A stretch of 61,704 bases of DNA, the filler included. It is 7 parts of 7 records of this genome, joined end to end, with 100 filler letters (N's around TTAATTAATTAA, not from the genome) between each part and the next. Parts side by side here need not be neighbours in the genome. Positions count along the whole stretch, not along the records: positions 13,221 to 18,363 come from SRR31156797_20430; 6 more parts are not named here. One strand, 5' to 3'. Every line of letters begins with the position of its first letter. Position 1 is the stretch's first letter. Below, in pieces: positions 5,679-38,375 of this stretch. The translations under genes were made by a program, and so were the position numbers. The notes under the pieces are model-generated. The model saw only the letters and a list, made by a program, of their open reading frames with translations. It was not told where the DNA came from and made no database searches.

Positions 5679-5778
5679 NNNNNNNNNNNNNNNNNNNNNN
5701 NNNNNNNNNNNNNNNNNNNNNNTTAATTAATTAANNNNNNNNNNNNNNNNNNNNNNNNNNNNNNNNNNNNNNNNNNNN
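5679..5778. other. Artificial contig spacer
   Basis: N44-TTAATTAATTAA-N44; stops in all six frames; composition changes across it. Confidence 0.99.
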
Positions 5779-7634
5779 CCTCCCAGGGCGCGGTCGCTCT
5801 CTTCGGCCAGTTCTTTCAGGATGGCACTCAGTCGCTCCGTCTCTTCAAGGGCCTCCCGGTTGACCGTTCCGATGGAGGTTCCGGGCAGGATGTCATGGAA
5901 CTGAAGGGTGAGGAGCCCTTTCCAGCACTCCTCCAGCCTTACGGCATGGGCCCTGAGAAGGTCCTCCCGGCCTCCCCTGCGGAAGAGCCGCACCTCCCGG
6001 AGTTCCTGCTCCCTGAGAGCGTACTCCAGCTTGCGGTTCATCCTTTTCAGGGCAGCCATGGTCGTATACGTGCCCCTGTGAAGCTCCAGGTAGAGCTCTC
6101 CTTTGTATAGGGGAAGGGCTTCGGGATCGGGACAGATCTCTTCCAGGGCCTCGCTCAGGCCGGCCCAGCGGTTCCGGGGCAATCCCTGAAGGTCCTCCAT
6201 ACGCCTCATCATCTCGATATCGGCTCTCATGGTGCCGCCGCCTCCGTCCCCCTCTCCGATGGAACGGAGCAGGGCGTCCTGGCAGTCCTTGTGCTGAACC
6301 CTGTCCCAGGCCGCCTTCATCTGCTCGGGGCTGTTCAAGCCCTCGTAGGCGGTAGTGATAAAATGGGTGGGGATGACGGTCCCGTCGATCCCCTGCCAGC
6401 GGAAGAGATCGAAGGGGAAGCGGGTGGTATCGTTCCAGCTGATCTTGCTGGTGACGAAGCGCTTGATGCCGCAGCCCGCCAGGATCTGGGGCATGCCGGC
6501 GGTATAACCGAATACGTCGGGCAGCCAGAGCACGTCCCCTGTGTAGCCGAAGAGCTCTCTCGTGGCCTTCCGTCCCATCAGAAACTGCCGGATCAGGGAC
6601 TCCCCTCCCGCCAGGTTGCAGTCGGCCTCTACCCACATGCCCCCGTTGGGTTCCCACTGGCCTCTGTCCACAGCCCTCTTAACGCCAGCGAAGATCGCGG
6701 GGTAGTTCTCCTTCAGATCGACCATCTGCACCGGTTGGGAAAATAAAAAGCGGAACTCAGGGTACTCGTCCAGATAGCTGAGCATATTGGCGCAGGTCCG
6801 GGCGCTCTTCCGGGAGGTTTCGGCCATGGGCCAGAGCCAGGCATGGTCCAGATGGGCGTTGCCCAGCGAATAGATCCGGGGGGCCAGGCTGCCGTTCTTC
6901 AGCTTCAGCAGGGGCTTCAGGGCAGGCCGGACGGCGGCGCATTGCTCCCGCAGCTCTGTCTCGGAGGCCGTGAAATCGATATCCATAAGCCCACGGTGCA
7001 TATCCCGGACCAGGCGGCTGCGCAGGAGGCTCCCCTCTTCCTGGATACCGGCGGTCTCGAAAAGGACTTTCAGGTCATAGTAAAGATCATAGATCGCCCT
7101 TTCCCGCAGGAGGAGGCGGGGCTCCTCCAGGATAAGGGGATAAGAGCCCTGACGATGGGCCACGGTGGTCATCACCCGGGGGCCGTCGAAGGGGTGGTAA
7201 CCCGGGAAGGTATGACCCGCCCAGGCCTCAATGGCCACATCCAGTTTGCCGTCAATGACCTGCTCGGGCCGTAAACGGAGCTTTCCGTGGAAGGGATTGA
7301 GGGCGCCGGCGGGTTCGCCGTTTACAAATACCAGGCTGTCTGTCTGGGGCCGAGCCTCCAGGAAGAGCTCCCCGCCGGCCGCGATCCCGGGCTCTCCGAG
7401 AGCGATGCGGCTGCGGAACCACCAGCTTTTATGATCCTCTCCCCAGCTGTGGGGAAAGGCGTCAACGGGATGCCACTCCATATCCCGCTCCGTCGGCACG
7501 GAGCGATAGATCCTGTCTGTGATGCCGTACTCCCACCGCGCCGACAGGACGGCGGGCGGCAGGGCCCGATACTTCCTGCGGTCCAGAAACTCCAGATACT
7601 GGGCGATCCTCGCCTCGCTCTTCTTATAGATCAT
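5779..7634 (-). CDS. GH38 alpha-mannosidase, 3'-truncated
   Basis: GNAHLDHAWLWP, WLPDVFGY, YKGELYLELHRGTYTT, QFHDILPGTSI motifs. Confidence 0.93.
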
Positions 7635-7641
7635 ATGCCTT

Positions 7642-8820
7642 TTACCCTTTCACCCTCTCGAGGGCCTGCTCCAGATCCTTCAGCAGGAGGGCGCTGTCCT
7701 CCAGTCCCGCGTGGCAGCGGATCAGAGAGATCCTGTCATCGGGGATGTCATCCTTATCCGCCCACTTGACGGCGGCGGGAAAGATCAGGCTCTCATAGCC
7801 GCCCCAGCTGACGGCCCTTTTGAAAAAGCCCAGGGCATTGGTAAAGGCCTTTACGTCCTCCAGGTTCCTGCTCTTGAGGCGAAAGGAAAAGAGACCTGAT
7901 CCCCCCCTCATCTGCTCGCAGGCCAGACCGTACTGGGGATAGGATTCCAGGAAGGGATAGAGAACGCTCTCCACCTTGGGATGCTGCTCCAGATAGGCGC
8001 ATAGCTTCTTCGCATTCTCAAAGTGGACGGGCATACGGATATGCATGGTTCTCATGCTCCGCATCACCAGCCAGGCCAGCATGGGATCGGGTACGGGACC
8101 GTTCACCAGAAACTCGTCGTTGAAGATCCTCTTCACGTCCTCGTCGGAGCCGACGATCACGCCCCCTACCACATCCGAGTTGCCCCCCAGATACTTGCTG
8201 ACCGAATGGACGGCCAGGTCTATCCCCATCTCCAGGGGATTCTGGAACAGGGGGGTGGCCCAGGTATTGTCAATGATGGTCTTGATGCCCCTGGAACGGG
8301 CGAAAGAGCCGATCTCTTTCAGATTCTGCAGTTTGAAGGTGAAGGTGGTAGGGCTCTCCAGGATGATGATCCTGGTCTCGGGGCGCACGGCCTTCTGGAA
8401 ATCTTCGATCCGGCAGCCCTCCACGAATGTGCATCCGATTCCGAAGCGCTTCAGATAAACATCCGCCAGGTGGCGGGTCCAGGTGTAGCTGTCCTCAACG
8501 GCGACGATATGGTCCCCCGTTTTCAGGAAGGCGCTGGCCGCAAGGGTCATGGCCGCCACTCCGGAGGACACCAGCTTGGCCCGTTCCCCCTTTTCGAGGG
8601 CGGCGATCTTCTGCTCCGCCAGATTGACGGTGGGATTGTTTCCTCTGGTATAGAGGTAGCTCTTGCTCTCATCGGCCAGGGCGTCCCGAAAGTCCTCATA
8701 GGATTTGTAGCAGAAGATGGAGGTTTGAAATATGGGAGGGCTGACGGCCCCGAAGGGCAGTTCCCTCTCACCCTGATGATGAAGGATGGCGGTCAGGTCT
8801 TCCTGAGAATCGTATGTCAT
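7642..8820 (-). CDS. PLP-dependent Cys/Met metabolism (trans-sulfuration family) lyase
   Basis: PPIFQTS, YTRGNNPT, DNTWATP, HSVSKYLGGNSD (PLP lysine), AVSWGGYESL. Confidence 0.92.
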   Translation of the reverse strand: MTYDSQEDLTAILHHQGERELPFGAVSPPIFQTSIFCYKSYEDFRDALADESKSYLYTRGNNPTVNLAEQKIAALEKGERAKLVSSGVAAMTLAASAFLKTGDHIVAVEDSYTWTRHLADVYLKRFGIGCTFVEGCRIEDFQKAVRPETRIIILESPTTFTFKLQNLKEIGSFARSRGIKTIIDNTWATPLFQNPLEMGIDLAVHSVSKYLGGNSDVVGGVIVGSDEDVKRIFNDEFLVNGPVPDPMLAWLVMRSMRTMHIRMPVHFENAKKLCAYLEQHPKVESVLYPFLESYPQYGLACEQMRGGSGLFSFRLKSRNLEDVKAFTNALGFFKRAVSWGGYESLIFPAAVKWADKDDIPDDRISLIRCHAGLEDSALLLKDLEQALERVKG

Positions 8821-8842
8821 TTTATTCTTTCTTCCTTATTGA

Positions 8843-9679
8843 TTATCCTTTGACGCTGCCCTCGGTCAGACCGGCTACGATGTAACGCTGACCTATGCCG
8901 AAGACGACCATGGTGGGCAGGAGGGCGATGATGATCCCCGCGCTCATAACGTCCCAGCTTATACCCGCTTTGGAGATGAAGGAGTTCAGGGCCACGGGAA
9001 CGGTCATCTTCTCGTCCGAGAGAAGCAGCATCACCGCCAGGAACAGCTCGTTCCAGATATTGATGAAAGCAAAACTGAACAGAGCCGCCATACCCGGCAG
9101 GGTCACCGGCAGGATCACATGGGTCAGAGACTGAAAGGTGGAACAGCCGTCTATCATGGCCGCCTCCTCCAGACTCGCCGGTATTCTGTCAAAGAAACTC
9201 TTGGCCATGATTGTGGAAAAGGCGACCACCGTAGCGATATATACAACACCCAGTATCCCCAGGTTGTTCACCAGCCCCATCTTGGAGAGGGTGGTAAAGA
9301 GGGGAACCATCAGGATAAAGGTGGGTATGGTCTGAGTGAAATAGAGGGCCAGCAGGGTATTCTTTTTGAAGCTCCGCCCCTTGTATCGGCTCAGCGCGAA
9401 ACCGCTGGAGACCGATACCACCATGGCGCCGAAGGAGGCGCAGAGGGAGAGGCCGAGGGAGTTCATAAAATAGCGGCCGAAGCTTGAAAAAGAAAAGAGC
9501 TTCTGGTAGCTGGCCAGGGTCGGGGTTTCGGGCCAGTAGCGGAGAGGCCAGGTATAGATCTCTTTGGGGCCTTTGATGCTGGTCACGAAGATCCAGTAGA
9601 GGGGGCCGATGGCCATAAGTAGGAAGACGCCCAGAAGCACATGGCGCATGATCCTTTCGACAAGGGATTTCTGTTTCAT
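8843..9679 (-). CDS. Carbohydrate ABC transporter permease (MalG-like)
   Basis: Hydrophobic helices; EAA loop SLEEAAMIDGCS. Confidence 0.95.
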   Translation of the reverse strand: MKQKSLVERIMRHVLLGVFLLMAIGPLYWIFVTSIKGPKEIYTWPLRYWPETPTLASYQKLFSFSSFGRYFMNSLGLSLCASFGAMVVSVSSGFALSRYKGRSFKKNTLLALYFTQTIPTFILMVPLFTTLSKMGLVNNLGILGVVYIATVVAFSTIMAKSFFDRIPASLEEAAMIDGCSTFQSLTHVILPVTLPGMAALFSFAFINIWNELFLAVMLLLSDEKMTVPVALNSFISKAGISWDVMSAGIIIALLPTMVVFGIGQRYIVAGLTEGSVKG

Positions 9680-10560
9680 ACCTCACCCTCCTTGCGGGAC
9701 ATAATGTTCAGATAGAAGGTGGCGTAGGCAAACAGGAGAACCATGATGATAACGCCGATGGCGGCGCCCTGGCCGTAGTCGTACTCTTTGAAAATCTTAT
9801 TGATCATCTGCGTGGCCAGGATATTGGTCCTGTTCACGGGACCGCCGTTGGTCATGGCGTAGATGATGTCAGGAAAGTTGATGATCCACATGGTCCTCAG
9901 AAGGGTGGTGCTGACTATGGTGGGCCGGATATAGGGTATGGTCACGCTGAAGAGCTGATGGAACCGTCCGGCTCCGTCTATGGTTGCCGCTTCGTAGAGC
10001 TCACCGGGAACGGACTGCAGGGCCGCCAGAAGCATGATCCCGAAGAAGGGTACGCCGTACCAGACATTGGCGATGATTACCGAGACCATGGCCAGTTTGG
10101 GAGAGGAAATAAAGCCGATGGGCTCGGCGATGATCCCCATCCTGATCAGGACATCGTTCACAAGCCCGAACTGACCGTTAAAGAGCCAGGCCCAGGTCAG
10201 ACCGATGGCGAATCCCGAGAGGGCCCAGGCATAGAAGACCAGTCCCGAATAGATACCCCGTCCCTTAAAGGGCTCCTTCATAAGCATGGCCAGCAGAAAC
10301 CCCAGGAGAAACTGGAGGACCAGAGAGCCGACTACCCAGACCAGGGTATTCCATAGAATCTGGAGAAACCTGATATCCTTGTTGGTCATCACATTGAAAA
10401 AGTTTTCGAAACCATTGTAATGCAGGTTCGACAGATCGAACATATTATAGCTCTGAAACGCTATGGTCGCTCCCTTCAGAACCGGCAGATAGATGAACAG
10501 GATGAGCAGAGCCGCCGCCGGCAGGAGCATAATCCTGTGTGTATTACGCTCGGAAATCAT
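9676..10560 (-). CDS. Carbohydrate ABC transporter permease (MalF-like)
   Basis: EAA loop ELYEAATIDGAG; TNGGP motif. Confidence 0.95.
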   Translation of the reverse strand: MISERNTHRIMLLPAAALLILFIYLPVLKGATIAFQSYNMFDLSNLHYNGFENFFNVMTNKDIRFLQILWNTLVWVVGSLVLQFLLGFLLAMLMKEPFKGRGIYSGLVFYAWALSGFAIGLTWAWLFNGQFGLVNDVLIRMGIIAEPIGFISSPKLAMVSVIIANVWYGVPFFGIMLLAALQSVPGELYEAATIDGAGRFHQLFSVTIPYIRPTIVSTTLLRTMWIINFPDIIYAMTNGGPVNRTNILATQMINKIFKEYDYGQGAAIGVIIMVLLFAYATFYLNIMSRKEGEV

Positions 10561-10674
10561 GATGTCTCCTTGAAAAAGTAAAGAGGGACGCCCCGCCGTC
10601 GGGCAGGGCGCCGTTTTTTTTAATTATCCGGGGGCCCTCCCGAAGGAAGGAACCCCATTGCTATAGAATCGTTA

Positions 10675-11961
10675 TCAGTAAGCCCAGTACTCGGACCACT
10701 TGGCGATGGCTTCGTCCACGGAGATCTCGCCCAGGAGGAGAGACTGCATGTACTGCTCCTGAACCTGTCCCCATCCGGGGTACTTGGGAGAATCCAGGGG
10801 GTACTTGATGAACTCGTAGGTATCGGTGTCGCTCATGGTCTTTTCCCATGCCTTGTACACGCCGGAGCTGAAGTAGGGATCGGAAGCGTAGGTAGCGCCG
10901 TGGATGGGCAGGGGGCCGTAGGCCTTACAGAACTCGGCGTTCTTTTCGGCGCCGGTCATATAGGAGAGGAAGTCCCAGGCGGCGTCGGCTTTCTCGGTGT
11001 AGCTGGGGATACCCAGACCGGCGAAGCCGTAGTCCAGGTAGGACTTGCCGCTCTTTCCCACGGGAAGGGGGATAACGGTGTAGTTATCTTCACCCAGCTG
11101 CTCGTTAACCAGAGCTACCGTATCGGGGTCCTGGATCAGGAAGGGAGTGGTTCCGGAGATGAAAGCGTTAACCTGCTCGTTGAATCCCCAGTTGACACCG
11201 TCGGAGGGAACGGCCTTCTGGAAAAGCTCGACATAGTCGGCAACGGCCTGACGGGCCACGGGATTATTGAAGGCGAACTTACCGTCGCTTGTCTTGTAGA
11301 CATTGCTGCTGTCGATGTTGTCCACATCGGAGAGGATCATAACGTCGGAGATCTTGAAGGCGCTTCCCTTACCGCGGAAACCGAAACCGAACTGGGCGGC
11401 GTTCTTTCCGGAGATCTCGATGGCCATCTGATACATCTCTTCCATGGTGGCGGGCATCTTGTCGTAGCCGTACTGCTTGAGGATGTCGGTTCTGACGAAC
11501 AGGGCCTTTACGAAGAAGAACTGGGGGATCAGATAGGGGGTGTTGTCCACGGTATTGGCCGCAGAGACGGCCAGGGGCAGGAGGTCGCCGGCCTCATCCC
11601 ATTTGTCCATATAAGAAGTCAGGTCCATCAGCTTGCCGTTGTTTACAAACTGCTTGACCGTATGGTCGCGAACCTCGATCACGTCCAGATCCTGGTTGGA
11701 GGTGAGCATCAGGGTGAGCTTATTGTCAGCCTGCTCGTAGGGGGGAGAGATCAGATTCACCTCCGTGCCGGGATTGGCGGCCTTGTAATCGTCGATGATG
11801 GACTGAATGGTGGCGGTTCTGCCGGGACTGGTCATGGTTTCGAAAAAGGTAAGGGAAACCTTTTCGTCTCCTCCGGCCTCCTGCTGGCCTCCGGCAAACA
11901 GGGGGGCTGCGAATACACACAGTACAAGAACGGTCATAAGAACATTCTTTAAGCTTTTCAT
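10675..11961 (-). CDS. Carbohydrate ABC transporter solute-binding protein
   Basis: Signal peptide ending LFAGGQQE (spirochaete style); start reassigned to MKSLK at 11961 after GGAG RBS. Confidence 0.92.
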   Translation of the reverse strand: MKSLKNVLMTVLVLCVFAAPLFAGGQQEAGGDEKVSLTFFETMTSPGRTATIQSIIDDYKAANPGTEVNLISPPYEQADNKLTLMLTSNQDLDVIEVRDHTVKQFVNNGKLMDLTSYMDKWDEAGDLLPLAVSAANTVDNTPYLIPQFFFVKALFVRTDILKQYGYDKMPATMEEMYQMAIEISGKNAAQFGFGFRGKGSAFKISDVMILSDVDNIDSSNVYKTSDGKFAFNNPVARQAVADYVELFQKAVPSDGVNWGFNEQVNAFISGTTPFLIQDPDTVALVNEQLGEDNYTVIPLPVGKSGKSYLDYGFAGLGIPSYTEKADAAWDFLSYMTGAEKNAEFCKAYGPLPIHGATYASDPYFSSGVYKAWEKTMSDTDTYEFIKYPLDSPKYPGWGQVQEQYMQSLLLGEISVDEAIAKWSEYWAY

Positions 11962-11979
11962 GAAAGACTCCTTATATTT

Positions 11980-12175
11980 TGGTACAGCCAAATTAAGATT
12001 TGGTATTACCATTTTTAAATTACAATCTGAATTTGTCAAGAATTATTATGAAATATCTTAATCTGGCGCTTTAAATTTCGGATCTACCTACAATAATGTA
12101 GTTTTATATCTCCAAAAATACTTTTCCTTGCATTCCGGGGAATGAATGGTATACTGGTCAGAAATGGTATTACCA
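11980..12175. promoter_or_regulatory. GntR-type operators TGGT-N3-ACCA in a divergent promoter region
   Basis: TGGTATTACCA at 12001-12011 and 12165-12175, variant TGGTACAGCCA at 11980-11990; TTGACA on the minus strand at 12034-12039; TTGCAT-N16-TATACT on the plus strand at 12128-12155. Confidence 0.75.
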
Positions 12176-12203
12176 AAATAGAGGACAATGGATCAATTCA
12201 GAT

Positions 12204-13120
12204 ATGAAAGAATACAAGTTCGAGCAGATCAGCAACACCATCAGGCATCAGATCGGCGGTGGATTCTGGAAACCAGGTGATAGAATATACTCAGAACGAC
12301 AGCTCGCCGAGATCCATGATGTGAGCAGGCTTACGGTCAAGAGAGCCCTGTCCACCCTCGTTTCCGAAGGCATTTTAGAGTACAAGGAAGGCAGGCAGGG
12401 TACCTTTGTAGCCGAGACAAGCGGTCCGGAAGAAACGATTGAGGATGACGAAAAAGGGGTGCGCTTCATTGGTGTTGCCGTCGACAACCATACGCCCGCA
12501 TTTGCTTCTCATATCCTTCAGGGGATTCATGACGGTCTCTGGCAGAATGGCTATCACACGATTTTCTGCAACACCTACCAGGAGAATGAGTCCATCCTTG
12601 AGCAGGTCCGCAGCCTCATAATACACACCAGGATCAGGGGATTTATATTCACGCCCCTCCTCGGACCCGGATCAAAGAAGGCCAACAAGGACATCCTGAC
12701 CCTGCTGGAAAATCACTCGATCCCCTGCGTTCTTGTTGACCGCTACCACACGGAAAGAGAGGATCACCGCATCACCTTGAACAACAGGGACAGTTTTCGA
12801 ACCCTTGCCGAATACCTGAGGGATAATGATTTTCATCGGATTCTCCTGGTGAACGGTTTCGAATCCACAAGCTCCGCCGACAGAGTGAAAGGAGTGTACG
12901 ATGTCTATTCTTCAGGGGAAGAGGACGATCTCTTTGCTATGCAAATAGATCTTGACGAACGGGAACTCCATCTCCACGGCACAATCCCCCAGCACATTAT
13001 CCGGGAGGTTGAGAGGAAGGGGCCCTTCAGCGCTCTGTTAGGCCTCAACCAGCAGCTACTGGATGCGGGCAAAAAGATCATGAAAGAGTTGAATCAGAAG
13101 GCCCTGACGGCGACCATCGT
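12204..13120 (+). CDS. GntR HTH fused to a LacI-type sensor domain (AraR-like), 3'-truncated
   Basis: PGDRIYSERQLAEIHDVSRLTVKRAL...GTFV followed by a periplasmic-binding-like domain. Confidence 0.9.
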
Positions 13121-13220
13121 NNNNNNNNNNNNNNNNNNNNNNNNNNNNNNNNNNNNNNNNNNNNTTAATTAATTAANNNNNNNNNNNNNNNNNNNNNNNN
13201 NNNNNNNNNNNNNNNNNNNN
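13121..13220. other. Artificial contig spacer
   Basis: N44-TTAATTAATTAA-N44. Confidence 0.99.
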
Positions 13221-13571
13221 CACTGGGACTTTGAAAGGGCCCTCCCCGTTCTGGGAAACAGGGCGCATTCTGTCTGGGGCAACCTGGAAAGGGCCTGCGA
13301 GTCGGGAACCCGGGTCCTGGCCAGGATCACTGTGATCCCCGGATTCAACGACTCCGAAGAGGACATGAGGGAATTCGCCCGCAGGATTCACCCTTACGGG
13401 GGGCTAAGAAACTTCCGATTCGAGATGCTTTACTACCATGAATACGGCAGAGAGAAGTGGGAGGCCATAGGGAAGGATTACCGTGGTCCCGAAGGCAGCA
13501 TAAGCCAGGAGAGCAAAGAGCGTTTCATAAAGATTTTCGAGGACAGGGGCATTCCGGTGGTCACGAGCTGA
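13221..13571 (+). CDS. Glycyl-radical activating enzyme (radical SAM), C-terminal fragment
   Basis: RITVIPGFNDSEED...LYYHEYGREKW, typical of PflA-family C-termini; lies directly upstream of the GRE. Confidence 0.85.
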   Translation, partial: HWDFERALPVLGNRAHSVWGNLERACESGTRVLARITVIPGFNDSEEDMREFARRIHPYGGLRNFRFEMLYYHEYGREKWEAIGKDYRGPEGSISQESKERFIKIFEDRGIPVVTS

Positions 13572-13641
13572 AGGCCCCTGGGCCCTGTCCCCAAAAAACA
13601 CCTGAGCGCCAGTGGCGCTTAGGATAATAGGAGTAAAAACA

Positions 13642-16059
13642 ATGGATTGGCAGAGGATATACGATAACGATAGAGCGGCGGAGCTGGCGGACGGCTTCTT
13701 CAGGGAGCAGAAGGAGACGACTGTCCTGAACGGCTGGTTCAGGGTGCTGGAGATCCACAAAGACCTGATGGGCGATCTCCCCGAGGGCCTTTCCCCTGAG
13801 ATGCTGGCGGCCAGGAAGCTCAAGGCCGTGGCGGAGAACCTGCCCTTGAGCATCAGCGCCTCCGCCGTATTCGCCGGCAGCCAGAACGACGCCTTCTCCA
13901 GCAGCTACGCCCTGATCCATCCCTCCTTCAAGGTAGAGGAGTTCAAGGGCTACTGCGATCCCCTGGCTGTTTTCAGCGACCTGGGCGAGGAAGAGGGAAT
14001 GACCCCCCAGCGGATCGAATCAGTTAAGGACTACTACGCAGGAACCGCCTATGTCCGGGACCTGAAGAAGGCCTACAGGGGCTGCACCGAACAGACCGAA
14101 GAGGCCCTTTTCTTTATCGAGCAGGTGACAGGCCATCTCATCCCCGACTTCTCCCGCCTGATAAGGGAAGGCAGCGAGGCCGTCAGGGCGGACATACAGG
14201 CAAGGATTGCCTCCGAGGGGGACGAAGAGAAGAAGGAGGCCCTCGGGGCCATGCGCATCAGCCTGGGGGCTTTGGAGATCCTGGCCGGCCGTTACAGGGA
14301 AATAGCCATGTCCCGCAGGGACGGGGAGAGCGATCCCCGGAGACAGCAGGAGTGGGATCTGATGGCCCGAACCCTGGAAAAGATCCCCCGGAAGGGAGCG
14401 GAAAGCCTCTACGAGGCCATCCAGTTCTACATACTCTGCTGGCAGACCATGTGCCTGGAGCAGAGCCCCAATCCCTACGCCTTCTCGGCGGGGAATATCG
14501 ACCGCCTTTTCGAACCCTACAGGGCGAATGATAAGGCGGACAGATCCGCAGCGGCCGGACTCTTCCAGGCCCTTCTGGCCTTCTACAATGTGGGAGACCG
14601 AAGCTGGGCCATATCCCAGAACATGCTGCTCAGCGGCAGAAGCATGGATGGAAGGGATCTGACCAACGAGACGAGCTACGCCTTGCTCGACGCGTTCTAC
14701 AGGGGACGCTACCCCCAGCCCATCCTCTCCATGCGCCTGCACAAGAACAGCCCTGAGAAGCTCTTCCGGGAGACGGGACGCTTCTTCTTCACCCCGGGGC
14801 AGCTGACCCCCTCCCTCTTCAACGACGACTCCATGCTCCCCATCCTGACGGAGAGGGGCGTAAGCCCCGAGGACGCGGAGAACTACGCCGTCGCCGGCTG
14901 CCAGGAACCCCTGGTCATGGGCAAGGACAACGGAAACACCACCAACAGCTGGCTCAACCTGGCCAAGGTACTGGAGCTCACCCTGAACGAGGGGCGTTCC
15001 ACCATCACCGGACGGAAGCTGGCCTCCTCTCCGGGGGAACTGGACGGAAAGGCAAGCTCCGGAGAGGCCGCGGAAGAACCGCAAGCCCGGGAGCTGCTCT
15101 TCCGTATCCGGGAGTTCTATTACAAGCAGCTGGATAAAACGATGGACGCCATGTGCGCGGCCGCCGACGACTGCAGCCGGGCCCTCTCCCATCTGAGGGT
15201 CCCCTTCCTCTCCTGCGCCATGGGAGGGATCGAGTCGGCTGTTGACCTGAGGAACGATAGGAAACAGGGCACCCCCTACAACGGCAGCGGCTGCCTGATC
15301 CACGGCCTCTCCGTCCTGGCCGACTCCTTCCGCGCCCTCTCGGACTATGCTGACAACAAAACTGAGGAGGAGTGCCGTACCCTGCTCAAGGCCCTGAAGG
15401 AGGATTTCAGGGACGCCGACTCCCTGCGCCAGTACCTGCAGGAGAGCGCCAAGTTCGGCAACAACGACGGGAGCGTCGACGATGAGGCGGCGGAGATCGT
15501 CACCCGGGTATCCGACAGGCTGAGGGAGAGAAGGAACTACCTGGGCAATCCCTTCCGCCCGGACTGGAGCTCTCCCTCCACCCACCTCCTCTACGGCTAC
15601 TGGACCGGTGCCACCCCCGACGGACGGCAGGCCAGGAGCATGCTGGGATACGGGGTGGATCCCCTCTACGGAGAGGCCACCACGGGCATGAACTCCCGGC
15701 TCCTCTCCCTCCGCAAGCTCCCCTACGAGAAGATGGACGGCGGCTGCGCCTGCCATCTGGGCATCAATCCCGCTTACTTCCCCGAGGAGAGCCTGGAGGA
15801 GAAGGGAGCGGCCTTCCGCCGCAGGGTACTGGATCCCCTGTTCAACCTCAGCGCCGGTTCGGAGCGCATAGAGCCCTTCTACCTCTATGTGAACGTCACA
15901 ACCGCGGACACCCTGCGCAAGCTGCTGGCGGATCCGGAAAAGTACGCCCCCTCGGGGGTCTACATCATGAGGATACACGGGACCTTCGTGAACTTCCTGG
16001 ACCTCTCGCCGGCCATTCAGGAGGACATCATCCTGCGCCTGGACAGCAGCGCGGCATGA
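13642..16059 (+). CDS. Glycyl-radical enzyme (PFL-like family), divergent
   Basis: GHLIPDF, SAGNIDRLFEPY, QPILSMR, Cys loop AGCQEP, KFGNND, GATPDGR, C-terminal MRIHGTFVNF...QEDIILR; start at ATG 13642 after AGGAG. Confidence 0.88.
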   Translation: MDWQRIYDNDRAAELADGFFREQKETTVLNGWFRVLEIHKDLMGDLPEGLSPEMLAARKLKAVAENLPLSISASAVFAGSQNDAFSSSYALIHPSFKVEEFKGYCDPLAVFSDLGEEEGMTPQRIESVKDYYAGTAYVRDLKKAYRGCTEQTEEALFFIEQVTGHLIPDFSRLIREGSEAVRADIQARIASEGDEEKKEALGAMRISLGALEILAGRYREIAMSRRDGESDPRRQQEWDLMARTLEKIPRKGAESLYEAIQFYILCWQTMCLEQSPNPYAFSAGNIDRLFEPYRANDKADRSAAAGLFQALLAFYNVGDRSWAISQNMLLSGRSMDGRDLTNETSYALLDAFYRGRYPQPILSMRLHKNSPEKLFRETGRFFFTPGQLTPSLFNDDSMLPILTERGVSPEDAENYAVAGCQEPLVMGKDNGNTTNSWLNLAKVLELTLNEGRSTITGRKLASSPGELDGKASSGEAAEEPQARELLFRIREFYYKQLDKTMDAMCAAADDCSRALSHLRVPFLSCAMGGIESAVDLRNDRKQGTPYNGSGCLIHGLSVLADSFRALSDYADNKTEEECRTLLKALKEDFRDADSLRQYLQESAKFGNNDGSVDDEAAEIVTRVSDRLRERRNYLGNPFRPDWSSPSTHLLYGYWTGATPDGRQARSMLGYGVDPLYGEATTGMNSRLLSLRKLPYEKMDGGCACHLGINPAYFPEESLEEKGAAFRRRVLDPLFNLSAGSERIEPFYLYVNVTTADTLRKLLADPEKYAPSGVYIMRIHGTFVNFLDLSPAIQEDIILRLDSSAA

Positions 16060-17099
16060 GAAACCGGGAGGGGGACACGCTCTACCAGAGGATCCGGCTC
16101 GATTTCTTCAGCAGGGTCTACAGGGGGGAGATTGAACCGGGCCAACCGCTCCCCGCCGAGCGGAAGCAGGCCGAAGAGCTGTCGGTCAGCCGGGGAACGA
16201 TCCGCAAGGCCCGGAAGATGCTTGAGGAGGAGGGCTTTATCGCCAACACCCAGGGCAGCGCCGCCGTCTACACCCCCCTGACCGGCGGGGGCCGGGGCAA
16301 AAGCGAGATCGTCGCGGCGGTGGTTCCGGTCCACAATCCCTTCTTCATGTCCTACTACAGGGCCTTCGAACGGGAGGCGGAGAAAGAGGACATCCTGGTG
16401 ATGATCAAGCAGCTGGACCACAGCAACGCCGGGCGACTGGAGAAGGTGCTCTTCTCCCTCTTCCTCAAGGGCATACGGGATATCGTTCTGTGGCCCTACG
16501 ACATCCGCCCGGCCTACGAGTATATTGAGAGGCTCAGCGGGCTGGGCATGAATATCATCCTCTTCGATACGGTCCGGGACGCCCCCTTCTGCGATTACAT
16601 CAGCGTGGATAACAGGCATGCCGTAAAGAGCCTTTACGACTGTCTGAAACAGAGGGATTGCACCGCCGTCACCTATATAGGTTGGGACACCGGCTCCCTG
16701 ACCAGCAACAGCGAAAGGGAGGCTGTCTTTCGTGATCTCTGCGATGCTGACGACGGGATCATCAGGCTGCCCTGGAACCAGGAGCTCCTCACATCCCGGC
16801 AGCTGATGGAAAATCCCCTGATACGGGAGCTGCTGGAAACGGACGGGAACAGGGGGATCCTCTGCGGAAACGGCAAGATAGGCATAACCCTGGAACAGCT
16901 GCTCATACAGAGGGGCAGAGACGATCTCCAGCTGGTCTCCATGGACAACTTCGAGGAGTCCGAGGCCCTGGGAATGACGGTCTATGAACAGCCCTTTGAA
17001 AGGATGGGCGCAAAGACATTCGAGATCCTCAGCCGAAGGCACCGGGGAAAGGATATGCCCGGCAAACACTACATAGAAGGAAGGTTGGTAGAACGATGA
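16056..17099 (+). CDS. GntR HTH fused to a LacI-type sensor domain
   Basis: PGQPLPAERKQAEELSVSRGTIRKA, then a sugar-binding-like domain; ATGA overlap with the GRE. Confidence 0.9.
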   Translation: MRNREGDTLYQRIRLDFFSRVYRGEIEPGQPLPAERKQAEELSVSRGTIRKARKMLEEEGFIANTQGSAAVYTPLTGGGRGKSEIVAAVVPVHNPFFMSYYRAFEREAEKEDILVMIKQLDHSNAGRLEKVLFSLFLKGIRDIVLWPYDIRPAYEYIERLSGLGMNIILFDTVRDAPFCDYISVDNRHAVKSLYDCLKQRDCTAVTYIGWDTGSLTSNSEREAVFRDLCDADDGIIRLPWNQELLTSRQLMENPLIRELLETDGNRGILCGNGKIGITLEQLLIQRGRDDLQLVSMDNFEESEALGMTVYEQPFERMGAKTFEILSRRHRGKDMPGKHYIEGRLVER

Positions 17100-18363
17100 A
17101 TCTGATAGGACTGGATATCGGCACGACGACGATCTGCGGAGTGCTCTACTCCCTGGACAAGAACAGGACCGTAAACACCCTGGTAAGGGACAACGGTTTC
17201 ATCAGCGGCCCCGAGGGGGAGTACCTGCAGGATCCGGACAGGATCTTCGCCGATCTGAAGGCCCTGCTGGATGAGCTGATCGACGGCGCCGCCGGCCCGG
17301 TAGGGGGCATCTCCCTCAGCGCCCAGATGCACGGCATCCTCTACACCGACAAAGAGGGCCGGGCGGTCACGCCCTTCTACACCTGGCAGAACCAGAGGGG
17401 GAACCGCCTGGAACAGGGCCGCCAGTTGGATACCTCCCTGACGGAGAAACTGGGGTATCCGGTCTACTCGGGCTACGGCTTCGTGACCCACTACTCCCTC
17501 CATCATGAAGGGCTGATCCCCTCTGAAGCCGTCCGGTTCTGCAATATCGGAGACTATGTCTGCATGCGCCTGGCCGGACGGAGGCTGCCCGTAACGGACC
17601 TGACCCTGGGAGCCAGCATGGGCATCGCCGACATACGCGGCGGCGGACGGTCCGCCGGCCTGAAAGAGACAGGGCTGGGGGACGATGAGAGGATCCCCGA
17701 ACTGGTCTCGTCCACAGAGCTCCTGGGCGAGTACCGGGGCGTTCCTGTGGTACAGCCCATAGGAGACAACCAGGCCAGCTTCCTGGGATCGGTGAAGGAC
17801 AAGGGCGGCAGCCTGCTGATCAACTACGGCACCGCAGGCCAGATCTCCTTTCACAGAGACAGCTACGCCGATTATCCGGGCTTTGAGACCCGGGCCCTGG
17901 GCAATGAGGGCTACATCCATGCGGCCTTCTCCCTCTGCGGAGGCAAATCCTATATGGTGCTTGCGAACTTCCTGAAGGAGACGGCCCTCCTCTTCGGGGC
18001 CCCTGAGGAGACCGATCCCCTGAAGATCATGGATGCCATGGATCTGGACTTCTCCAAGACACCGGACGGGGAGGGTGAACAGCGGATAGAGGCCCTTCCC
18101 CTCTTCCTGGGCGAACGGGGGAAGGCGGAGAGCTACGCCTTCTTCAGAAACATCACCGACTGGAACTTCAATCCCCAGAATACGGTGAGGGCCCTGGTCC
18201 AGGGTATGATAGACGAGCTCAAACGCTTCTACGATCCCCTTCCCCCGGAGGTACGCAGCCCCATCGGCACCCTGGTGGGAGCCGGGAACGGCATCAGGAG
18301 GAATCCCCATCTGATCAGGGCCGCCTCCCAGTCCTACGGCATGCCCCTCTCCCTGCTGGATTT
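17096..18363 (+). CDS. FGGY-family carbohydrate kinase (sedoheptulokinase-like), 3'-truncated
   Basis: GLDIGTTTI, SAQMHGI, YTWQ, GDNQASFLG, LINYGTAGQIS, PLFLGER. Confidence 0.85.
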
Positions 18364-18463
18364 NNNNNNNNNNNNNNNNNNNNNNNNNNNNNNNNNNNNN
18401 NNNNNNNTTAATTAATTAANNNNNNNNNNNNNNNNNNNNNNNNNNNNNNNNNNNNNNNNNNNN
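18364..18463. other. Artificial contig spacer
   Basis: N44-TTAATTAATTAA-N44. Confidence 0.99.
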
Positions 18464-18604: not shown

Positions 18605-19309
18605 ATGATTTCAAAACAATTTGGTTGGCTGTTTTTGGTAATCACAATGGTTATACCCCTGTTGTTCGCCCCCATGGCGGCCGCCGAAACCTGGAGGATC
18701 ACCTCCCTGGACTGGCAGCCCTATTCCGGATCGGACATCAAGGACCAGGGCAAATCAATCGCAATCCTCAGAGACATTCTTACCCGGCACGACATTGAAT
18801 TGATCGTAGAGTTCTATCCCTGGAAGCGGGCCCAGAAACTTGCGAAAACCCGAAAATATGTGGGATATTTCCCCGCCTGGCCCGAGGAGGTGGCACCGGG
18901 ATTTCTCCCGTCCCTCCCGGTGGACTGGTCCTACATCGGTGTCCTGACCTACACGGGATCAAACCTTGCCTGGGAGAGCATCGACACGCTATATGAAGCA
19001 AACAAGGTGATCACCATTTCCACCTATGTCTATCCCACGGAGATCGAAAACGCCATGAAACGGTTTCCCGGAAATGTCATCACCTCTCCCGACGAAACCC
19101 TTTGTGCAAAGATGCTGGGTAAAAAGCGGGCCAGGGCCGCCATCACCGATCCCGACGTGATGCTTTACAACGCCCAGAAGGAGGGGATCAAAAACATCGA
19201 AATTCTGAAAAAAAATCTTCAAAAGAAAGAACTTGTCATCGCGTTCAGGGATGACGAGGCCAACAGGCAGAGACTCGAATTCCTGAACAAAATTCTCACT
19301 GAAAAATAA
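18605..19309 (+). CDS. Periplasmic solute-binding protein (family 3-like), copy 1
   Basis: Signal peptide (AAA-E); LDWQPYSG, FYPWKRA motifs. Confidence 0.85.
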   Translation: MISKQFGWLFLVITMVIPLLFAPMAAAETWRITSLDWQPYSGSDIKDQGKSIAILRDILTRHDIELIVEFYPWKRAQKLAKTRKYVGYFPAWPEEVAPGFLPSLPVDWSYIGVLTYTGSNLAWESIDTLYEANKVITISTYVYPTEIENAMKRFPGNVITSPDETLCAKMLGKKRARAAITDPDVMLYNAQKEGIKNIEILKKNLQKKELVIAFRDDEANRQRLEFLNKILTEK

Positions 19310-19486: not shown

Positions 19487-20191
19487 ATGGTTTTCAAACA
19501 ATTTGGCTCGCTTGTATTGGTTGTCACCATTGTTGCGCTCCTGCTGGTTCCAACCCTGGCCGTTGCCGAGACCTGGAGAATCACCTCCCTGGACTGGCAA
19601 CCCTATTCAGGATCGGACATGCGGGACCAGGGAAAATCAATCGCAATACTCAAGGAAGTTCTTGCCCGGAACGGCATTGAACTGATCGTTGAATTCTACC
19701 CCTGGAGACGGGCCCAATACCTTGCCAGGCAACCGCAATACCTGGGATATTTTCCGGCCTGGCCCGAGGAGGTGGCAGAGGGGTTTGTGGCGTCTCCCCC
19801 GGTGGACTGGTCCTACATCGGAGTCCTGACCCCCACCGGCTCCAACCTTGCCTGGGAAAACATTGACAAACTCTATGAGAACCACAAGGTGGCCACCATC
19901 GTAACCTACGCCTATCCAAAGGAAATCGAAGATGCCATGAAACGTTTTCCCGGCCACGTCATCACCTCTCCCAACGAAACCCTTTGCGCGAAGATGCTGG
20001 TGGGAAAACGGGCTGAGGCAGCCATCACCGATCCCAACGTGATGCTCTACAGCGCAAAGCAGGTGGGGATCACCAATATAGAAATTCTTAAAAAGGATCT
20101 CCGGAAAAAGGCGCTTGTCATCGCGTTGAGAGATGACGACGCCAACAGGGAGAGAATCGAGTTTTTGAATAAAATTCTCACTGAAAATTAA
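19487..20191 (+). CDS. Periplasmic solute-binding protein (family 3-like), copy 2 (tandem paralogue)
   Basis: Same length (234 aa) with long identical stretches shared with 18605-19309. Confidence 0.85.
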   Translation: MVFKQFGSLVLVVTIVALLLVPTLAVAETWRITSLDWQPYSGSDMRDQGKSIAILKEVLARNGIELIVEFYPWRRAQYLARQPQYLGYFPAWPEEVAEGFVASPPVDWSYIGVLTPTGSNLAWENIDKLYENHKVATIVTYAYPKEIEDAMKRFPGHVITSPNETLCAKMLVGKRAEAAITDPNVMLYSAKQVGITNIEILKKDLRKKALVIALRDDDANRERIEFLNKILTEN

Positions 20192-26766: not shown

Positions 26767-26866
26767 NNNNNNNNNNNNNNNNNNNNNNNNNNNNNNNNNN
26801 NNNNNNNNNNTTAATTAATTAANNNNNNNNNNNNNNNNNNNNNNNNNNNNNNNNNNNNNNNNNNNN
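26767..26866. other. Artificial contig spacer
   Basis: N44-TTAATTAATTAA-N44. Confidence 0.99.
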
Positions 26867-26870
26867 ATAC

Positions 26871-26908
26871 AGGGTTGCGCTGCGGTTTGCGGCGCAGCCC
26901 TTTTTTTT
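26871..26908 (+). terminator. Rho-independent terminator of an upstream gene outside the contig
   Basis: GGGTTGCGCTGC...GCGGCGCAGCCC stem followed by T8. Confidence 0.8.
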
Positions 26909-26955
26909 GTCCCGGAGGATTTGAAAACAGTTAGAAAAATAGTTTAAAAAACTGA

Positions 26956-26983
26956 TTGACATATCCATGAGCCGTGCTAAGAT
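26956..26983 (+). promoter_or_regulatory. Sigma70 promoter of the ROK gene
   Basis: TTGACA-N16-TAAGAT with extended TG; ATG only 6 nt downstream. Confidence 0.6.
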
Positions 26984-26989
26984 TTTCAT

Positions 26990-28216
26990 ATGAACAGGAG
27001 AAGAACCGTCAAACAGAACAACAGGAAGATCATCCTCGATCTGGCCCGAAAGGCGGGCGGCTTCTCCATTGCGGAGATCTCAGGGAAGAGCGGAATCAGC
27101 AAGACCACGGTGAACAAGGTTCTGGATTTCTACATCGATCAGGGCCTGGTGCTGGAGGCGGGGAAGGGCGGATCCTCCGACGAGGGCGGCAAAAGGCCGG
27201 CCTTGTTTCAGTTCAACAGGAACTACGGATACGTGGCCTCCCTTCATGTGGGCCCGGGGTTCATCAAAGGGATACTGACGAACCTGACGGGAGAGATCGT
27301 CCACTCCGTTCACATGGCCCTGCCCGAACCGCAGGTCCATGAGATCGCCGGGCAGCTGGCCCTTCTGATCCGGGAGTTCAAAGACAGAGCGGATGAAGGC
27401 TCGGTCGCCCTGATCGCGGTGGTCCTCGGCCTGCCGGGGATCGTGGATCCCGATCTGGGGATCTCCGTATATTCTCCCCATTACGATTGCTGGGGGAACG
27501 ACGTGCCCATGCTGGATATGGTGAAGGATAAGCTTGATTTTTCTGTGCCCTTCTATATGGACAACATCAATCGCTTTCAGGCCTTTGCCGAGAAGGCCAT
27601 GGGCTGCGCGGAGCATGTGAGCAATTTCCTGATCCTCGACGCCATCGAGGAGGGGGTCGGCGCGGGGGTCGTGCTGAACGGCACCCTCCGGCACGGCGTG
27701 CATAACCTGTCCGGAGAGATCGGGCATATGGTGCTGCTTCCCCGGAGCGGCGACCTCTGCATATGCGGCGGGAGGGGCTGTTTCGAGGCCATGGTCTCCC
27801 GGAAGAGGATCGAGCGTCTGGCGGACGAGGGGCGCGGCAGGTTTCCCGGTTCCGCCGTATTCGCCGGGGCCGGGGGCTTCGAGCTGGACCATCTGTTCAA
27901 GGCCGCCAGGGAACGGGATCCCCTGGCCCGGGAGATCCTGGAGGATGTCGCCTCGTGGTTCGCCCTGGGACTGAACAACATCATCATGGTGAACGATCCC
28001 CATCTGGTGGTTATACAGGGGATCTATACGGATGCGGGCGACTGGTTCCTGGAGCGGATCAAGGAGGAGATCAGCCGTCTCTCCTATCCGGACATAGACC
28101 GCAGGCTGGACATCGTCTACTCCGAACTGGGCCCCGACCGGGGCGTGCTGGGCGGAGCGGCCTATGCGATCTGGGATTTCTTCGAAACCACCGATATATA
28201 CGGGCGGGTTTCCTGA
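26990..28216 (+). CDS. ROK-family transcriptional repressor (NagC/XylR-like)
   Basis: N-terminal HTH, GGKRP, GEIGHM...CICGGRGCFE zinc motif. Confidence 0.94.
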   Translation: MNRRRTVKQNNRKIILDLARKAGGFSIAEISGKSGISKTTVNKVLDFYIDQGLVLEAGKGGSSDEGGKRPALFQFNRNYGYVASLHVGPGFIKGILTNLTGEIVHSVHMALPEPQVHEIAGQLALLIREFKDRADEGSVALIAVVLGLPGIVDPDLGISVYSPHYDCWGNDVPMLDMVKDKLDFSVPFYMDNINRFQAFAEKAMGCAEHVSNFLILDAIEEGVGAGVVLNGTLRHGVHNLSGEIGHMVLLPRSGDLCICGGRGCFEAMVSRKRIERLADEGRGRFPGSAVFAGAGGFELDHLFKAARERDPLAREILEDVASWFALGLNNIIMVNDPHLVVIQGIYTDAGDWFLERIKEEISRLSYPDIDRRLDIVYSELGPDRGVLGGAAYAIWDFFETTDIYGRVS

Positions 28217-28267
28217 CAAAAGGTGAATCGCTATGCGCAGGCATAGTCAATATACAGGAGGAAAATT

Positions 28268-29320
28268 ATGAAGTGTAGGTTTTTCGCATTGGCAATGGCA
28301 GGACTGATGGCTCTATCGACAGGTCTGTTCGCCGCGGGGCAGCAGGAGGGCGGTTCGGGCGAAGCGACCCTGGGCACGGCTATCAGAACGCTCCAGAATC
28401 CCTATCAGGCGAATTACAAGGTTGGAGGAGACCTGTATGCCGCCGAGGCCGGCGGACTGGAGCATGTGGTTCTGACCTGCGAAGGAAGCAGTGAGAAGCA
28501 GCTGAACGATATCAAGGCCCTGGTCGCCAAGACCGGCGGGGATATGGTCCTTATGGTAGATCCCAACGAGGCGCCCAACGTCGTCCCCATCGGACGGGCC
28601 ATGGAGGACGCCGGCGTATACTGGGTTTCCTGGTGGAACAAGCCCGAGGAGGTAAAGGTGATGGACTACCCCCACTGGGTGGCGCATATCTCCTATGACG
28701 GACTCGGGGGCGGTGAGTTTACCGCTCAGGCTCTCGTAGACGCCATCGGCGGCGAAGGAAAGATCATCGCCCTGCAGGGAATGCTGGCCAACTCGGTCGC
28801 CCAGGACCGTTTTCAGGGTCTTCAGAATGTACTGGCCAAGAATCCCAAGGTCGAACTGGTCGCCTATGAGGCCGCCGACTGGGACAGATCCATCGCCTAT
28901 GACAAGACCATGAGCATGCTGGTGGCCAATCCCGATATCAAGGGCGTCTGGGCCGCCAACGACAATATGGCTCTGGGCGCTCTGGAAGCCCTGAGAAGCA
29001 AGGGCCTGGCCGGTAAGGTTCTGGTGACCGGACTGGACGGCGTGGAAGAGATCTTCACGGCCATCGAGAACGGCGAAGCCGCCGCGACCGTATACAACGA
29101 TTCCAAGTACCAGGCCGGTATCGCCCACGCCCTCGCCATGGCTGCCTACAAGGGCGATCTGGATGTGAAATCCCTCCCCGCTGAGAAGAGACAGTTCTTT
29201 GCCGAGGCCGTTAACGTAGACGCGTCAAACGTCAAAGAGGTGGTGGACGTCTATGTCAACGGAACGCCCGACTACGATTTCGGTGATCTGTTCGGATCCT
29301 GGGCCCGGGCCATGAAGTAG
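28268..29320 (+). CDS. Monosaccharide ABC transporter solute-binding protein (RbsB-like)
   Basis: Signal LFAAGQQE; ADWDR, WAANDNMALGA, VTGLDG. Confidence 0.93.
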   Translation: MKCRFFALAMAGLMALSTGLFAAGQQEGGSGEATLGTAIRTLQNPYQANYKVGGDLYAAEAGGLEHVVLTCEGSSEKQLNDIKALVAKTGGDMVLMVDPNEAPNVVPIGRAMEDAGVYWVSWWNKPEEVKVMDYPHWVAHISYDGLGGGEFTAQALVDAIGGEGKIIALQGMLANSVAQDRFQGLQNVLAKNPKVELVAYEAADWDRSIAYDKTMSMLVANPDIKGVWAANDNMALGALEALRSKGLAGKVLVTGLDGVEEIFTAIENGEAAATVYNDSKYQAGIAHALAMAAYKGDLDVKSLPAEKRQFFAEAVNVDASNVKEVVDVYVNGTPDYDFGDLFGSWARAMK

Positions 29321-29378
29321 GATTCTCCACAGGAGGGGGATCATCTCTCCCTCCTCATCCATTAAAAAAGAGGAAAGA

Positions 29379-30386: not shown

Positions 30387-30399
30387 GCGGGAGAGGATT

Positions 30400-31920: not shown

Positions 31921-31930
31921 GAGTTCCAAG

Positions 31931-32911: not shown

Positions 32912-32982
32912 CGGCTTTCCTGTATGGCCGGCGGCGGACATCCCTCTCCGCCGGCTTCCGCTACCAGCCATTGGAGGCAATC

Positions 32983-34413: not shown

Positions 34414-34436
34414 GATACTGAGATAAGGATGGATAT

Positions 34437-35483: not shown

Positions 35484-35559
35484 AGAGAGGCCTTCAGGCC
35501 CTCTCCGTAAAAAATAGCCAGGGCGGCCGTGGCGTCCTGGCAGAATATGAGGAACAGAT

Positions 35560-37074: not shown

Positions 37075-37141
37075 ATTGAATGGCAGCCTCCTGTTCCGCA
37101 GGGGGCGCCTGGCCGGTTCCGATGATGTTCAAGAATAGAAT

Positions 37142-37171
37142 TTGACAGATTTGAAAAAGGGGTGATACAAT
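37142..37171 (+). promoter_or_regulatory. Sigma70 promoter
   Basis: TTGACA-N18-TACAAT with extended TG. Confidence 0.6.
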
Positions 37172-37214
37172 CTGAAACGTTTTAGGTTATATGGAGGTAA
37201 AGCGTTCCGCCCCT

Positions 37215-38275: not shown

Positions 38276-38375
38276 NNNNNNNNNNNNNNNNNNNNNNNNN
38301 NNNNNNNNNNNNNNNNNNNTTAATTAATTAANNNNNNNNNNNNNNNNNNNNNNNNNNNNNNNNNNNNNNNNNNNN
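38276..38375. other. Artificial contig spacer
   Basis: N44-TTAATTAATTAA-N44. Confidence 0.99.

Follow-up and report, generated by a model that had tools for sequence, protein, structure and literature searches.

A glycyl radical enzyme family with RIHGT and GCQEP loops found next to a sugar kinase of the FGGY type

Introduction

Which reaction is carried out by a glycyl radical enzyme (GRE) whose radical loops differ from the usual ones and whose gene stands in line with a sugar kinase gene is the question raised by contig SRR31156797_20430, located at positions 13221-18363 of the analysed window (the whole stretch of DNA, 1-61704). GREs open substrates to anaerobes that ordinary acid-base chemistry cannot, and newly assigned GREs have revealed pathways from choline to trimethylamine and pathways of hydroxyproline, sulfonates, and anhydro-sugars. 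In a preliminary description made from the DNA sequence, the GRE of this contig, here designated P0001, was proposed as an uncharacterised class acting on a phosphorylated sugar or polyol. Here, P0001 was compared with its homologues, solved structures, and loci of other genomes. It keeps the fold and catalytic residues of GREs and belongs to a family with invariant loop motifs. With moderate confidence, it is considered a functional GRE with eliminase- or isomerase-type C-O cleavage of a carbohydrate-like compound.

Radical loops and catalytic residues

The Gly loop of P0001 reads MRIHGTF with Gly as residue 780 (codon 15979-15981), and the Cys loop reads AGCQEP with Cys as residue 420 (codon 14899-14901), both exactly as described before. 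Aligned in HMMER, RIHGT of P0001 stands opposite RVAGY and GCQEP opposite GCVEP of glycerol dehydratase from Clostridium butyricum (1r8w), and Cys420, Glu422, His165, and Gly780 align with its Cys433, Glu435, His164, and the Gly of RVAGY, respectively. The single Cys is part of a CxE motif (C420-Q421-E422, preceded by G419). There is no Cys-Cys pair in P0001, which excludes formate-lyase chemistry, and the candidate identity as pyruvate formate-lyase (PFL) was rejected. The single Cys, the CxE Glu, the His164 equivalent, the C-terminal radical Gly, and the activase are all shared with glycerol dehydratase (1r8w/1r9d) and with 1,2-propanediol dehydratases (5i2g, 9rco). According to the available part of a GRE review (PMC13450708), all characterised 1,2-eliminases and isomerases retain CxE, with Glu hydrogen-bonded to the substrate hydroxyl, and His164 of glycerol dehydratase is the proposed general acid protonating the leaving hydroxyl.

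The GRE fingerprint published in that review is RVxG[FWY]x6-8[FL]x4Qx2[IV]x2R (PMC13450708). P0001 fits it at R777, G780, L788, Q793, I796, and R799, and His occupies a free position. In Pfam, P0001 matched PF02901 (E 1.6e-93), and the precomputed Pfam results of all 120 listed homologues likewise hold PF02901 alone. GRE homologues with a non-canonical Gly loop have been found by sequence mining and named aminoacyl radical enzymes (AAREs); their functions are given as not known in the accessible text (PMC11528403). In AAREs, the radical Gly itself is replaced by Ala, Ser, or Thr according to that text, whereas the family of P0001 keeps Gly and differs in the flanks. As Gly780 is kept, in all family members, identity with the AAREs was excluded.

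Conservation of the motifs

Of 8000 candidates scored in a word-indexed search, 3390 reached E ≤ 1e-10, and motifs were counted in the query and the best 120 of the 3390 homologues, which are 53-91% identical to it. The preliminary description had made the new class depend on conservation of RIHGT in homologues; R-I-H-G-T and G-C-Q-E-P are present in 121 of 121 sequences. The Gly loop is IMRIHGT in 107 of them, IVRIHGT in 13, and IIRIHGT in one, and the Cys loop is AGCQEPL in 116 and GGCQEPI in five. In an alignment of 50 sequences of diverse GREs (A1), residues G164, H165, C420, R777, G780, L788, and R799 are invariant, and Q793 and I796 are nearly invariant.

An exhaustive search among representatives gave 3357 of them at E ≤ 0.001, with 526 at E ≤ 1e-30, and residues were counted after alignment of 110 listed representatives 650-1100 aa long. 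The position of Gly780 is occupied by Gly in 109 and by a gap in one. The residue after Gly is aromatic in 99, Thr in three, Met in three, Leu in two, and Gln in one, with a gap in two. His precedes Gly in nine representatives, and all nine also have Gln after Cys; Gln without His was found in three and neither residue in 98. Among the His-bearing representatives are the more distant proteins P0125 (RIHGQ), P0130 and P0142 (RVHGM), P0137 and P0138 (RVHGY), and P0171 (RVHGF), which are 31-41% identical to the query in alignment A1 (P0138 is outside A1, with 34% in the representative search). At aligned pocket positions, they share H165, Y279, A280, S282, S325, Q326, N327, and T434 with the query. 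Judged from the alignments, it is His before Gly together with Gln after Cys, rather than the whole RIHGT string, that marks a deep clade, and Thr after Gly marks the subclade containing P0001.

Co-evolution of the His and Gln residues was considered and rejected: all nine His-bearing representatives are on or beside one tree branch, which indicates one inherited derived state and not repeated co-variation. A physical contact of His779 with Gln421 between the Gly and Cys loops is proposed as a possibility. Further clade-specific features are a two-residue insertion, P276-N277, with respect to glycerol dehydratase, and the invariant residues W322, R537, H554, Y651, and Y670. P0129 (746 aa) branches within the family clade and has Asp at the position of the catalytic Cys and an RVPGA Gly loop; by these residues, it may be a degenerate, non-radical derivative.

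Fold and phylogenetic position

The structure prediction that had been suggested for the GRE was computed with AlphaFold2 (AF2) and gave a model with a predicted local distance difference test score (pLDDT) of 91.7 and a predicted template modelling score (pTM) of 0.92. With this model, Foldseek recognized the GRE fold, with TM 0.80-0.84 to more than 30 solved GREs at 18-24% identity. The best matches, about equal, were GRE propanediol and glycerol dehydratases (TM 0.83), CutC, HypD, PflD, and YbiW. From sequence and model, P0001 is a full-length member of the PFL-like GRE division, with its barrel domain, ten-stranded barrel fold, catalytic Cys, and radical Gly conserved. Among solved structures, the highest sequence score is that of glycerol dehydratase 1r8w (200 bits, E 7e-58, 23-24% identity), followed by those of 1,2-propanediol dehydratase 9rco, Archaeoglobus GRE 2f3o, HypD, and PflD.

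Against the PFL2-3 subfamily model TIGR01774, P0001 scored 237 bits vs. a cut-off of 678.2; many other uncharacterised representatives score 650-910 bits, and many of the 62 nearest full-length ones pass this model. None of the NCBIfam equivalog cut-offs was reached by P0001 (HypD, CutC, HpsG, HpfG, PRK09983, PFL, indoleacetate and 4-hydroxyphenylacetate decarboxylases). HypD gave the highest score, 180 bits vs. a cut-off of 1100, and the others 45-174 bits vs. 994-1150, with 174 bits vs. 1109 for the PflD-type model PRK09983. Likewise, none of the 62 nearest full-length representatives is at an equivalog cut-off.

A tree of 65 rows was computed in FastTree and rooted at the midpoint, with 12 rows from the family, seven from the wider clade, 45 other representatives (one row being in two lists), and YbiW and PflD, translated from Escherichia coli K-12, as the sole characterised anchors. 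A branch with support 94 separates the family, placed in an 18-row group, from the other rows, and it lies within a 100%-supported group that also includes P0125 and P0129 (branch length 0.87). Grouping with a characterised GRE, named in the preliminary description as grounds for giving up the new class, was not found: YbiW and PflD are in a separate 46-row group with 100% support. Their structures (8id7, 8id0, 8yjo) are 20-22% identical to P0001, and their loops are the canonical RVAGY and GC[IV]E, unlike those of P0001. The proposal of an uncharacterised class therefore stood, P0001 being outside every characterised class tested. Its second half, a phosphorylated substrate, is shown by nothing found here: FGGY kinases take free sugars, and the kinase could equally phosphorylate the GRE product.

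No publication characterising the RIHGT/GCQEP family was found in full-text literature, and subscription papers and supplements could still hold one. The available part of the GRE review contains no GRE of this description and states that whole GRE clades are still unvalidated (PMC13450708).

Genes of the contig

The window consists of seven contigs with G+C content from 0.34 to 0.61, joined by N44-TTAATTAATTAA-N44 spacers. Positions 13221-18363 are exactly one complete contig of 5143 bp with G+C content of 0.61 and a spacer on each side; only its four genes are thus valid as context, adjacency across spacers is meaningless, and the contig edges at 13221 and 18363 cut off the activase and the kinase. 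Activase fragment, GRE, regulator, and kinase are all coded on the plus strand (Table 1). Long antisense open reading frames (ORFs) overlie the GRE gene, as expected by chance from a gene with 61% G+C. The gene company described before was recovered with the reservation that activase and kinase are partial, and ATGA overlaps are indeed present, at the GRE/regulator junction (16056-16059) and at the regulator/kinase junction (17096-17099). The contig is read as a translationally coupled operon of activase, GRE, sugar-responsive regulator, and FGGY kinase.

Table 1. Features of the GRE contig and artificial joins of the window
Feature	Positions	Strand	Basis or remark
Radical S-adenosylmethionine (radical-SAM) GRE activase, 3' fragment, last 116 codons and stop	13221-13571	+	TIGR02494, E 7e-13
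Shine-Dalgarno-like AGGAG, 8 nt before GRE ATG	13629-13633	+	Sequence reading
GRE P0001, RIHGT/GCQEP family, 805 aa	13642-16059	+	Pfam, HMMER, AF2, Foldseek
His165 codon, aligned to glycerol dehydratase His164	14134-14136	+	Alignment to 1r8w
Cys loop A418-G-C420-Q421-E422-P423 (catalytic Cys, clade-specific Gln, CxE Glu)	14893-14910	+	Alignment
Gly loop and rest of radical-domain fingerprint, M776-R777-I778-H779-G780-T781, x6, L788, x4, Q793, x2, I796, x2, R799	15967-16038	+	Alignment
Regulator, 347 aa, GntR winged helix-turn-helix (HTH) and LacI/periplasmic binding protein (PBP)-type sugar-binding domain	16056-17099	+	Pfam; start overlaps GRE stop (ATGA)
Sedoheptulokinase-like FGGY kinase, first 422 codons	17096-18363	+	Pfam FGGY_N; start overlaps regulator stop (ATGA); ends at contig edge
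Artificial spacers	5679-5778, 13121-13220, 18364-18463, 26767-26866, 38276-38375, 53171-53270	none	Contig joins, non-biological

The activase fragment covers positions 186-291 of the 293 positions of the TIGR02494 profile, so that the N-terminus with the CX3CX2C part is absent; with the complete activase of locus L001 (290 aa), it shares 65% identity. In the regulator, a GntR domain (residues 10-69, 44.6 bits) is followed by Peripla_BP_3 (residues 197-347, 27.6 bits), the architecture termed AraR-type in the preliminary description. FGGY_N was detected in the kinase fragment with 53.6 bits, and FGGY_C in its orthologues from L073 (34.1 bits, above the cut-off) and L001 (23.6 bits, below the cut-off of 27). 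The kinase is 85% identical to the 456-aa kinase of L001. It scored 46 bits against the XylB equivalog with a cut-off of 380, and no equivalog cut-off was reached. In the ESM Atlas, it is closest to clusters bearing the automatic name 'sedoheptulokinase family protein', and among solved structures, a gluconate kinase matches best (69 bits).

Another regulator gene, at 12204-13120, is on a different contig from the GRE. That the preceding contig (5779-13120) adjoins the GRE contig was considered and rejected: the join between them is artificial, and identity of the two regulators is only 28% over 81 residues.

Loci of the family in other genomes

By GRE identity, the nearest genomes are metagenome-assembled genomes (MAGs) of Oceanispirochaeta (84%, 75%, and 74%) and a MAG of Verrucomicrobiota (55%). 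In a Spirochaetota sample, the family is present in three of 401 genomes. A metagenome scan with representative P0122 gave 80 loci from varied metagenomes including human gut and activated sludge. Genes of the loci were called by greedy longest-ORF picking, which mis-called some high-G+C genes, e.g., the regulator of L001, and proteins were clustered with BLAST. A full GRE call was obtained in 74 of 86 loci, and L006, L007, L026, L028, L032, L033, L036, L048, L056, L065, L071, and L080 were dropped. After de-replication at 88% GRE identity, 44 loci remained.

The activase is at position -1 in 33 of the 41 de-replicated loci having an upstream gene. Linkage of the kinase was counted in the 28 loci where at least two genes flank the GRE in both directions: an orthologue of the window kinase (at least 150 bits, 30-36% identity, and 85% in L001) is within three genes of the GRE in 18 of them, and any FGGY kinase in 22. 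The linkage of kinase and GRE recurs across loci, including those of Spirochaetota and Verrucomicrobiota genomes. An orthologue of the GntR-PBP regulator is at +1 in 8/44 loci, and a cupin similar to phosphomannose isomerase (PMI) was found in 9/44, mostly at +2 (manA model 79 bits vs. a cut-off of 116). The conserved unit consists of activase, GRE, and ketose-type FGGY kinase, to which a sugar-binding regulator or PMI-like isomerase is often added.

Three human-gut loci (L008, L013, and L017) carry a ribose-type ATP-binding cassette (ABC) transporter, ROK proteins, a Zn-dependent alcohol dehydrogenase, and a class II aldolase, and two equivalogs were recognized there, xylulokinase (479 bits vs. 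380) and fructose-6-phosphate aldolase (301 bits vs. 214). A human-gut cluster of GRE proteins includes that of Claveliimonas bilis. Other neighbours of the family are sugar ABC or tripartite ATP-independent periplasmic (TRAP) transporters, an aldolase of the dihydrodipicolinate synthase (DHDPS) family, class II aldolases, aldose epimerase, 2-keto-3-deoxy-6-phosphogluconate (KDPG) aldolase, and glycoside hydrolases (GH38, GH51-type arabinofuranosidase, GH94, GH4, GH39, and GH3).

In the Oceanispirochaeta MAG locus L002 (4247-9015 and 13486-17327), there is no sedoheptulokinase-like kinase, but activase and GRE have metabolic genes to either side. One flank holds a 2-hydroxyacid dehydrogenase, a class II aldolase, and two canonical FGGY kinases, and the other a DHDPS-family aldolase and a TRAP transporter. 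In L042 (7379-9931), an 851-aa protein is directly upstream of the GRE, with the domains of a radical-SAM activase confined to its C-terminal third (577-781). It may be a fused activase, or two genes merged by gene calling.

Proposed function and alternatives

As a functional GRE of the eliminase or isomerase type, P0001 would most likely act on a sugar, polyol, or anhydro-sugar. The radical-SAM activase would install the radical on Gly780, and the radical would move to Cys420, whose thiyl form would take a hydrogen from a carbinol carbon of the sugar-like substrate. Glu422 of the C-Q-E loop would deprotonate the hydroxyl on that carbon, and the neighbouring C-O bond, to a hydroxyl, ring, or ether oxygen, would be broken with the help of His165. 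The product radical would then regain hydrogen to give a deoxy-carbonyl sugar, as in GRE 1,2-eliminase/isomerase chemistry. The kinase would phosphorylate either the product of the GRE, which is slightly favoured, or, beforehand, the substrate; in other genomes, a PMI-like isomerase or aldolases would then supply central metabolism.

A280, S325, T434, and S/N643 of the clade replace S282, Y339, D447, and Y640 of glycerol dehydratase 1r8w, which we take to be its glycerol contacts. Small or polar clade-invariant residues and the P276-N277 insertion suggest that the pocket may be roomier than that of glycerol dehydratase.

Several observations weigh against this function. PF01228 (Gly_radical) is not among the Pfam matches of P0001 at E ≤ 0.01. 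The strict fingerprint is violated by I778 in place of V and by T781 in place of an aromatic residue; as judged by alignment, this is a departure at two positions and not a loss of the radical domain. The operon in the window is truncated at both ends, and six of the 28 well-flanked loci are without an FGGY kinase nearby. The human-gut loci L008, L013, and L017 have the canonical xylulokinase instead of the sedoheptulokinase-like kinase. Finally, many loci of the family are set among housekeeping genes, so that context beyond three or four genes is uninformative.

As for the order of the steps, we lean slightly to the GRE acting first on the free compound, with the kinase trapping the (deoxy)ketose product, because FGGY kinases take free sugars, because the names of the partner kinase types (xylulokinase, sedoheptulokinase-like) refer to ketoses, and because no phosphotransferase system (PTS) permease gene is near the GRE. 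The gene order, with GRE before kinase, favours neither order of steps.

The alternative that survives best is that the kinase works first and the GRE takes a sugar or polyol phosphate; this is a possibility to be reckoned with, although an unlikely one. It would resemble YbiW and PflD, the 'anhydroglycolysis' isomerases, which are 1,5-anhydroglucitol-6-phosphate and 1,5-anhydromannitol-6-phosphate C-O lyases and, as far as the available text of the review goes, the sole characterised GREs acting on sugars; they keep CxE and cleave C-O next to a carbinol (PMC13450708). That these known sugar-acting GREs use phosphorylated substrates (PMC13450708, same text) is in its favour, as is the tight linkage of kinase and GRE. 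In addition, the clade-invariant Arg537 and His554, rare in other GREs, could bind an anion, and the PMI-like partner resembles sugar-phosphate enzymes. As a further likeness, a fructose-6-phosphate aldolase gene is nearby both in E. coli and in the human-gut loci of the family. However, both the tree and the PRK09983 score set the family far apart from YbiW and PflD. Moreover, the phosphate in E. coli is delivered by PTS, for which frw/ptsA genes were recognized, whereas the present contig has an FGGY kinase and the vicinity of the GRE yielded no PTS permease gene; the sole PTS-related match among Pfam-scanned neighbours is an HPr domain several genes downstream in L004.

It is improbable that the GRE acts on a small non-carbohydrate alcohol (diol, amino alcohol, or sulfonate) and that the kinase belongs to a shared regulon and not to the pathway. 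In its favour, the solved structures nearest to P0001 in both sequence and fold are those of glycerol and 1,2-propanediol dehydratases, and six well-flanked loci are without an FGGY kinase. The glycerol-binding positions are nevertheless not kept, and the kinase linkage extends over several phyla, with a regulator bearing a sugar-type ligand domain. Glycerol dehydratase genes have 1,3-propanediol or microcompartment genes as neighbours, whereas a sugar kinase and a sugar regulator are found here. No microcompartment shell gene or aldehyde dehydrogenase is among the Pfam-scanned neighbours; a Zn-dependent and an Fe-dependent alcohol dehydrogenase are each among them.

That P0001 is a degenerate homologue with the glycyl radical lost and the odd Gly loop a sign of decay, as the undetected PF01228, RI in place of RV, and the missing aromatic residue after Gly could indicate, is very improbable given the motif invariant in all 121 sequences at 53-91% identity, all other fingerprint positions kept, the dedicated activase upstream in 33/41 loci, and an intact ORF coupled by start/stop overlap to the downstream gene.

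Coming back to P0001 as a carbohydrate-active GRE, a bolder version of this reading is offered as speculation that is rather unlikely to hold as a whole. In it, the His(G-1)/Gln(C+1) clade would be a new functional GRE class opening an undescribed PTS-independent anaerobic pathway, from a free sugar derivative (e.g., an anhydro-alditol, polyol, or ether-linked sugar) to a deoxy-ketose captured by a ketose-type FGGY kinase. The His-Gln pair would bridge the Gly and Cys loops and alter radical storage or transfer.

Other contigs of the window

Contig 5779-13120 encodes a fragment of GH38 alpha-mannosidase, a pyridoxal phosphate (PLP) enzyme of Cys/Met metabolism, a CUT1-type ABC transporter, and a GntR regulator whose gene is truncated by the contig edge. 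In the loci of the family, GH38 is just upstream of activase and GRE in L004, and a Cys/Met PLP enzyme is placed after the kinase in L058 and L076. On contig 26867-38275, ROK, a ribose-type binding protein, permease, ABC ATPase, Zn-dependent alcohol dehydrogenase, and a canonical FGGY kinase were annotated; genes of these kinds directly precede activase and GRE in the human-gut loci L008, L013, and L017.

Two tandem similar proteins of 234 aa with hydrophobic N-termini and no Pfam match are coded at 18605-19309 and 19487-20191, followed by a 1250-aa hybrid histidine kinase (GAF, HAMP, and three receiver stretches) and then CheR. The contig at 38376-53170 has G+C content of 0.34 and genes of phage type, encoding a protein with HTH and M78 (ImmA/IrrE-like) domains, Rha/KilAC antirepressor, DUF1351, RecT, and a beta-lactamase-fold protein; probably, it is part of a prophage or a foreign contig binned with the others.

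Significance

Named members of the family come from Spirochaetota, Verrucomicrobiota, Bacteroidota, and Clostridia, and also from human-gut metagenomes and the cultured gut species Claveliimonas bilis. In databases, they are labelled mostly as 'pyruvate formate lyase family protein' or 'hypothetical protein'. The invariant RIHGT/GCQEP signature and the recurrent kinase partner make the family easy to recognize in genomes and give a clear start for finding its function, for which it is a good target. Its radical-loop flanks, conserved yet non-canonical, test how strict the GRE fingerprint is. A large unstudied branch of GREs beside a sugar kinase points to an oxygen-free breakdown route for a sugar-like compound, not yet described.

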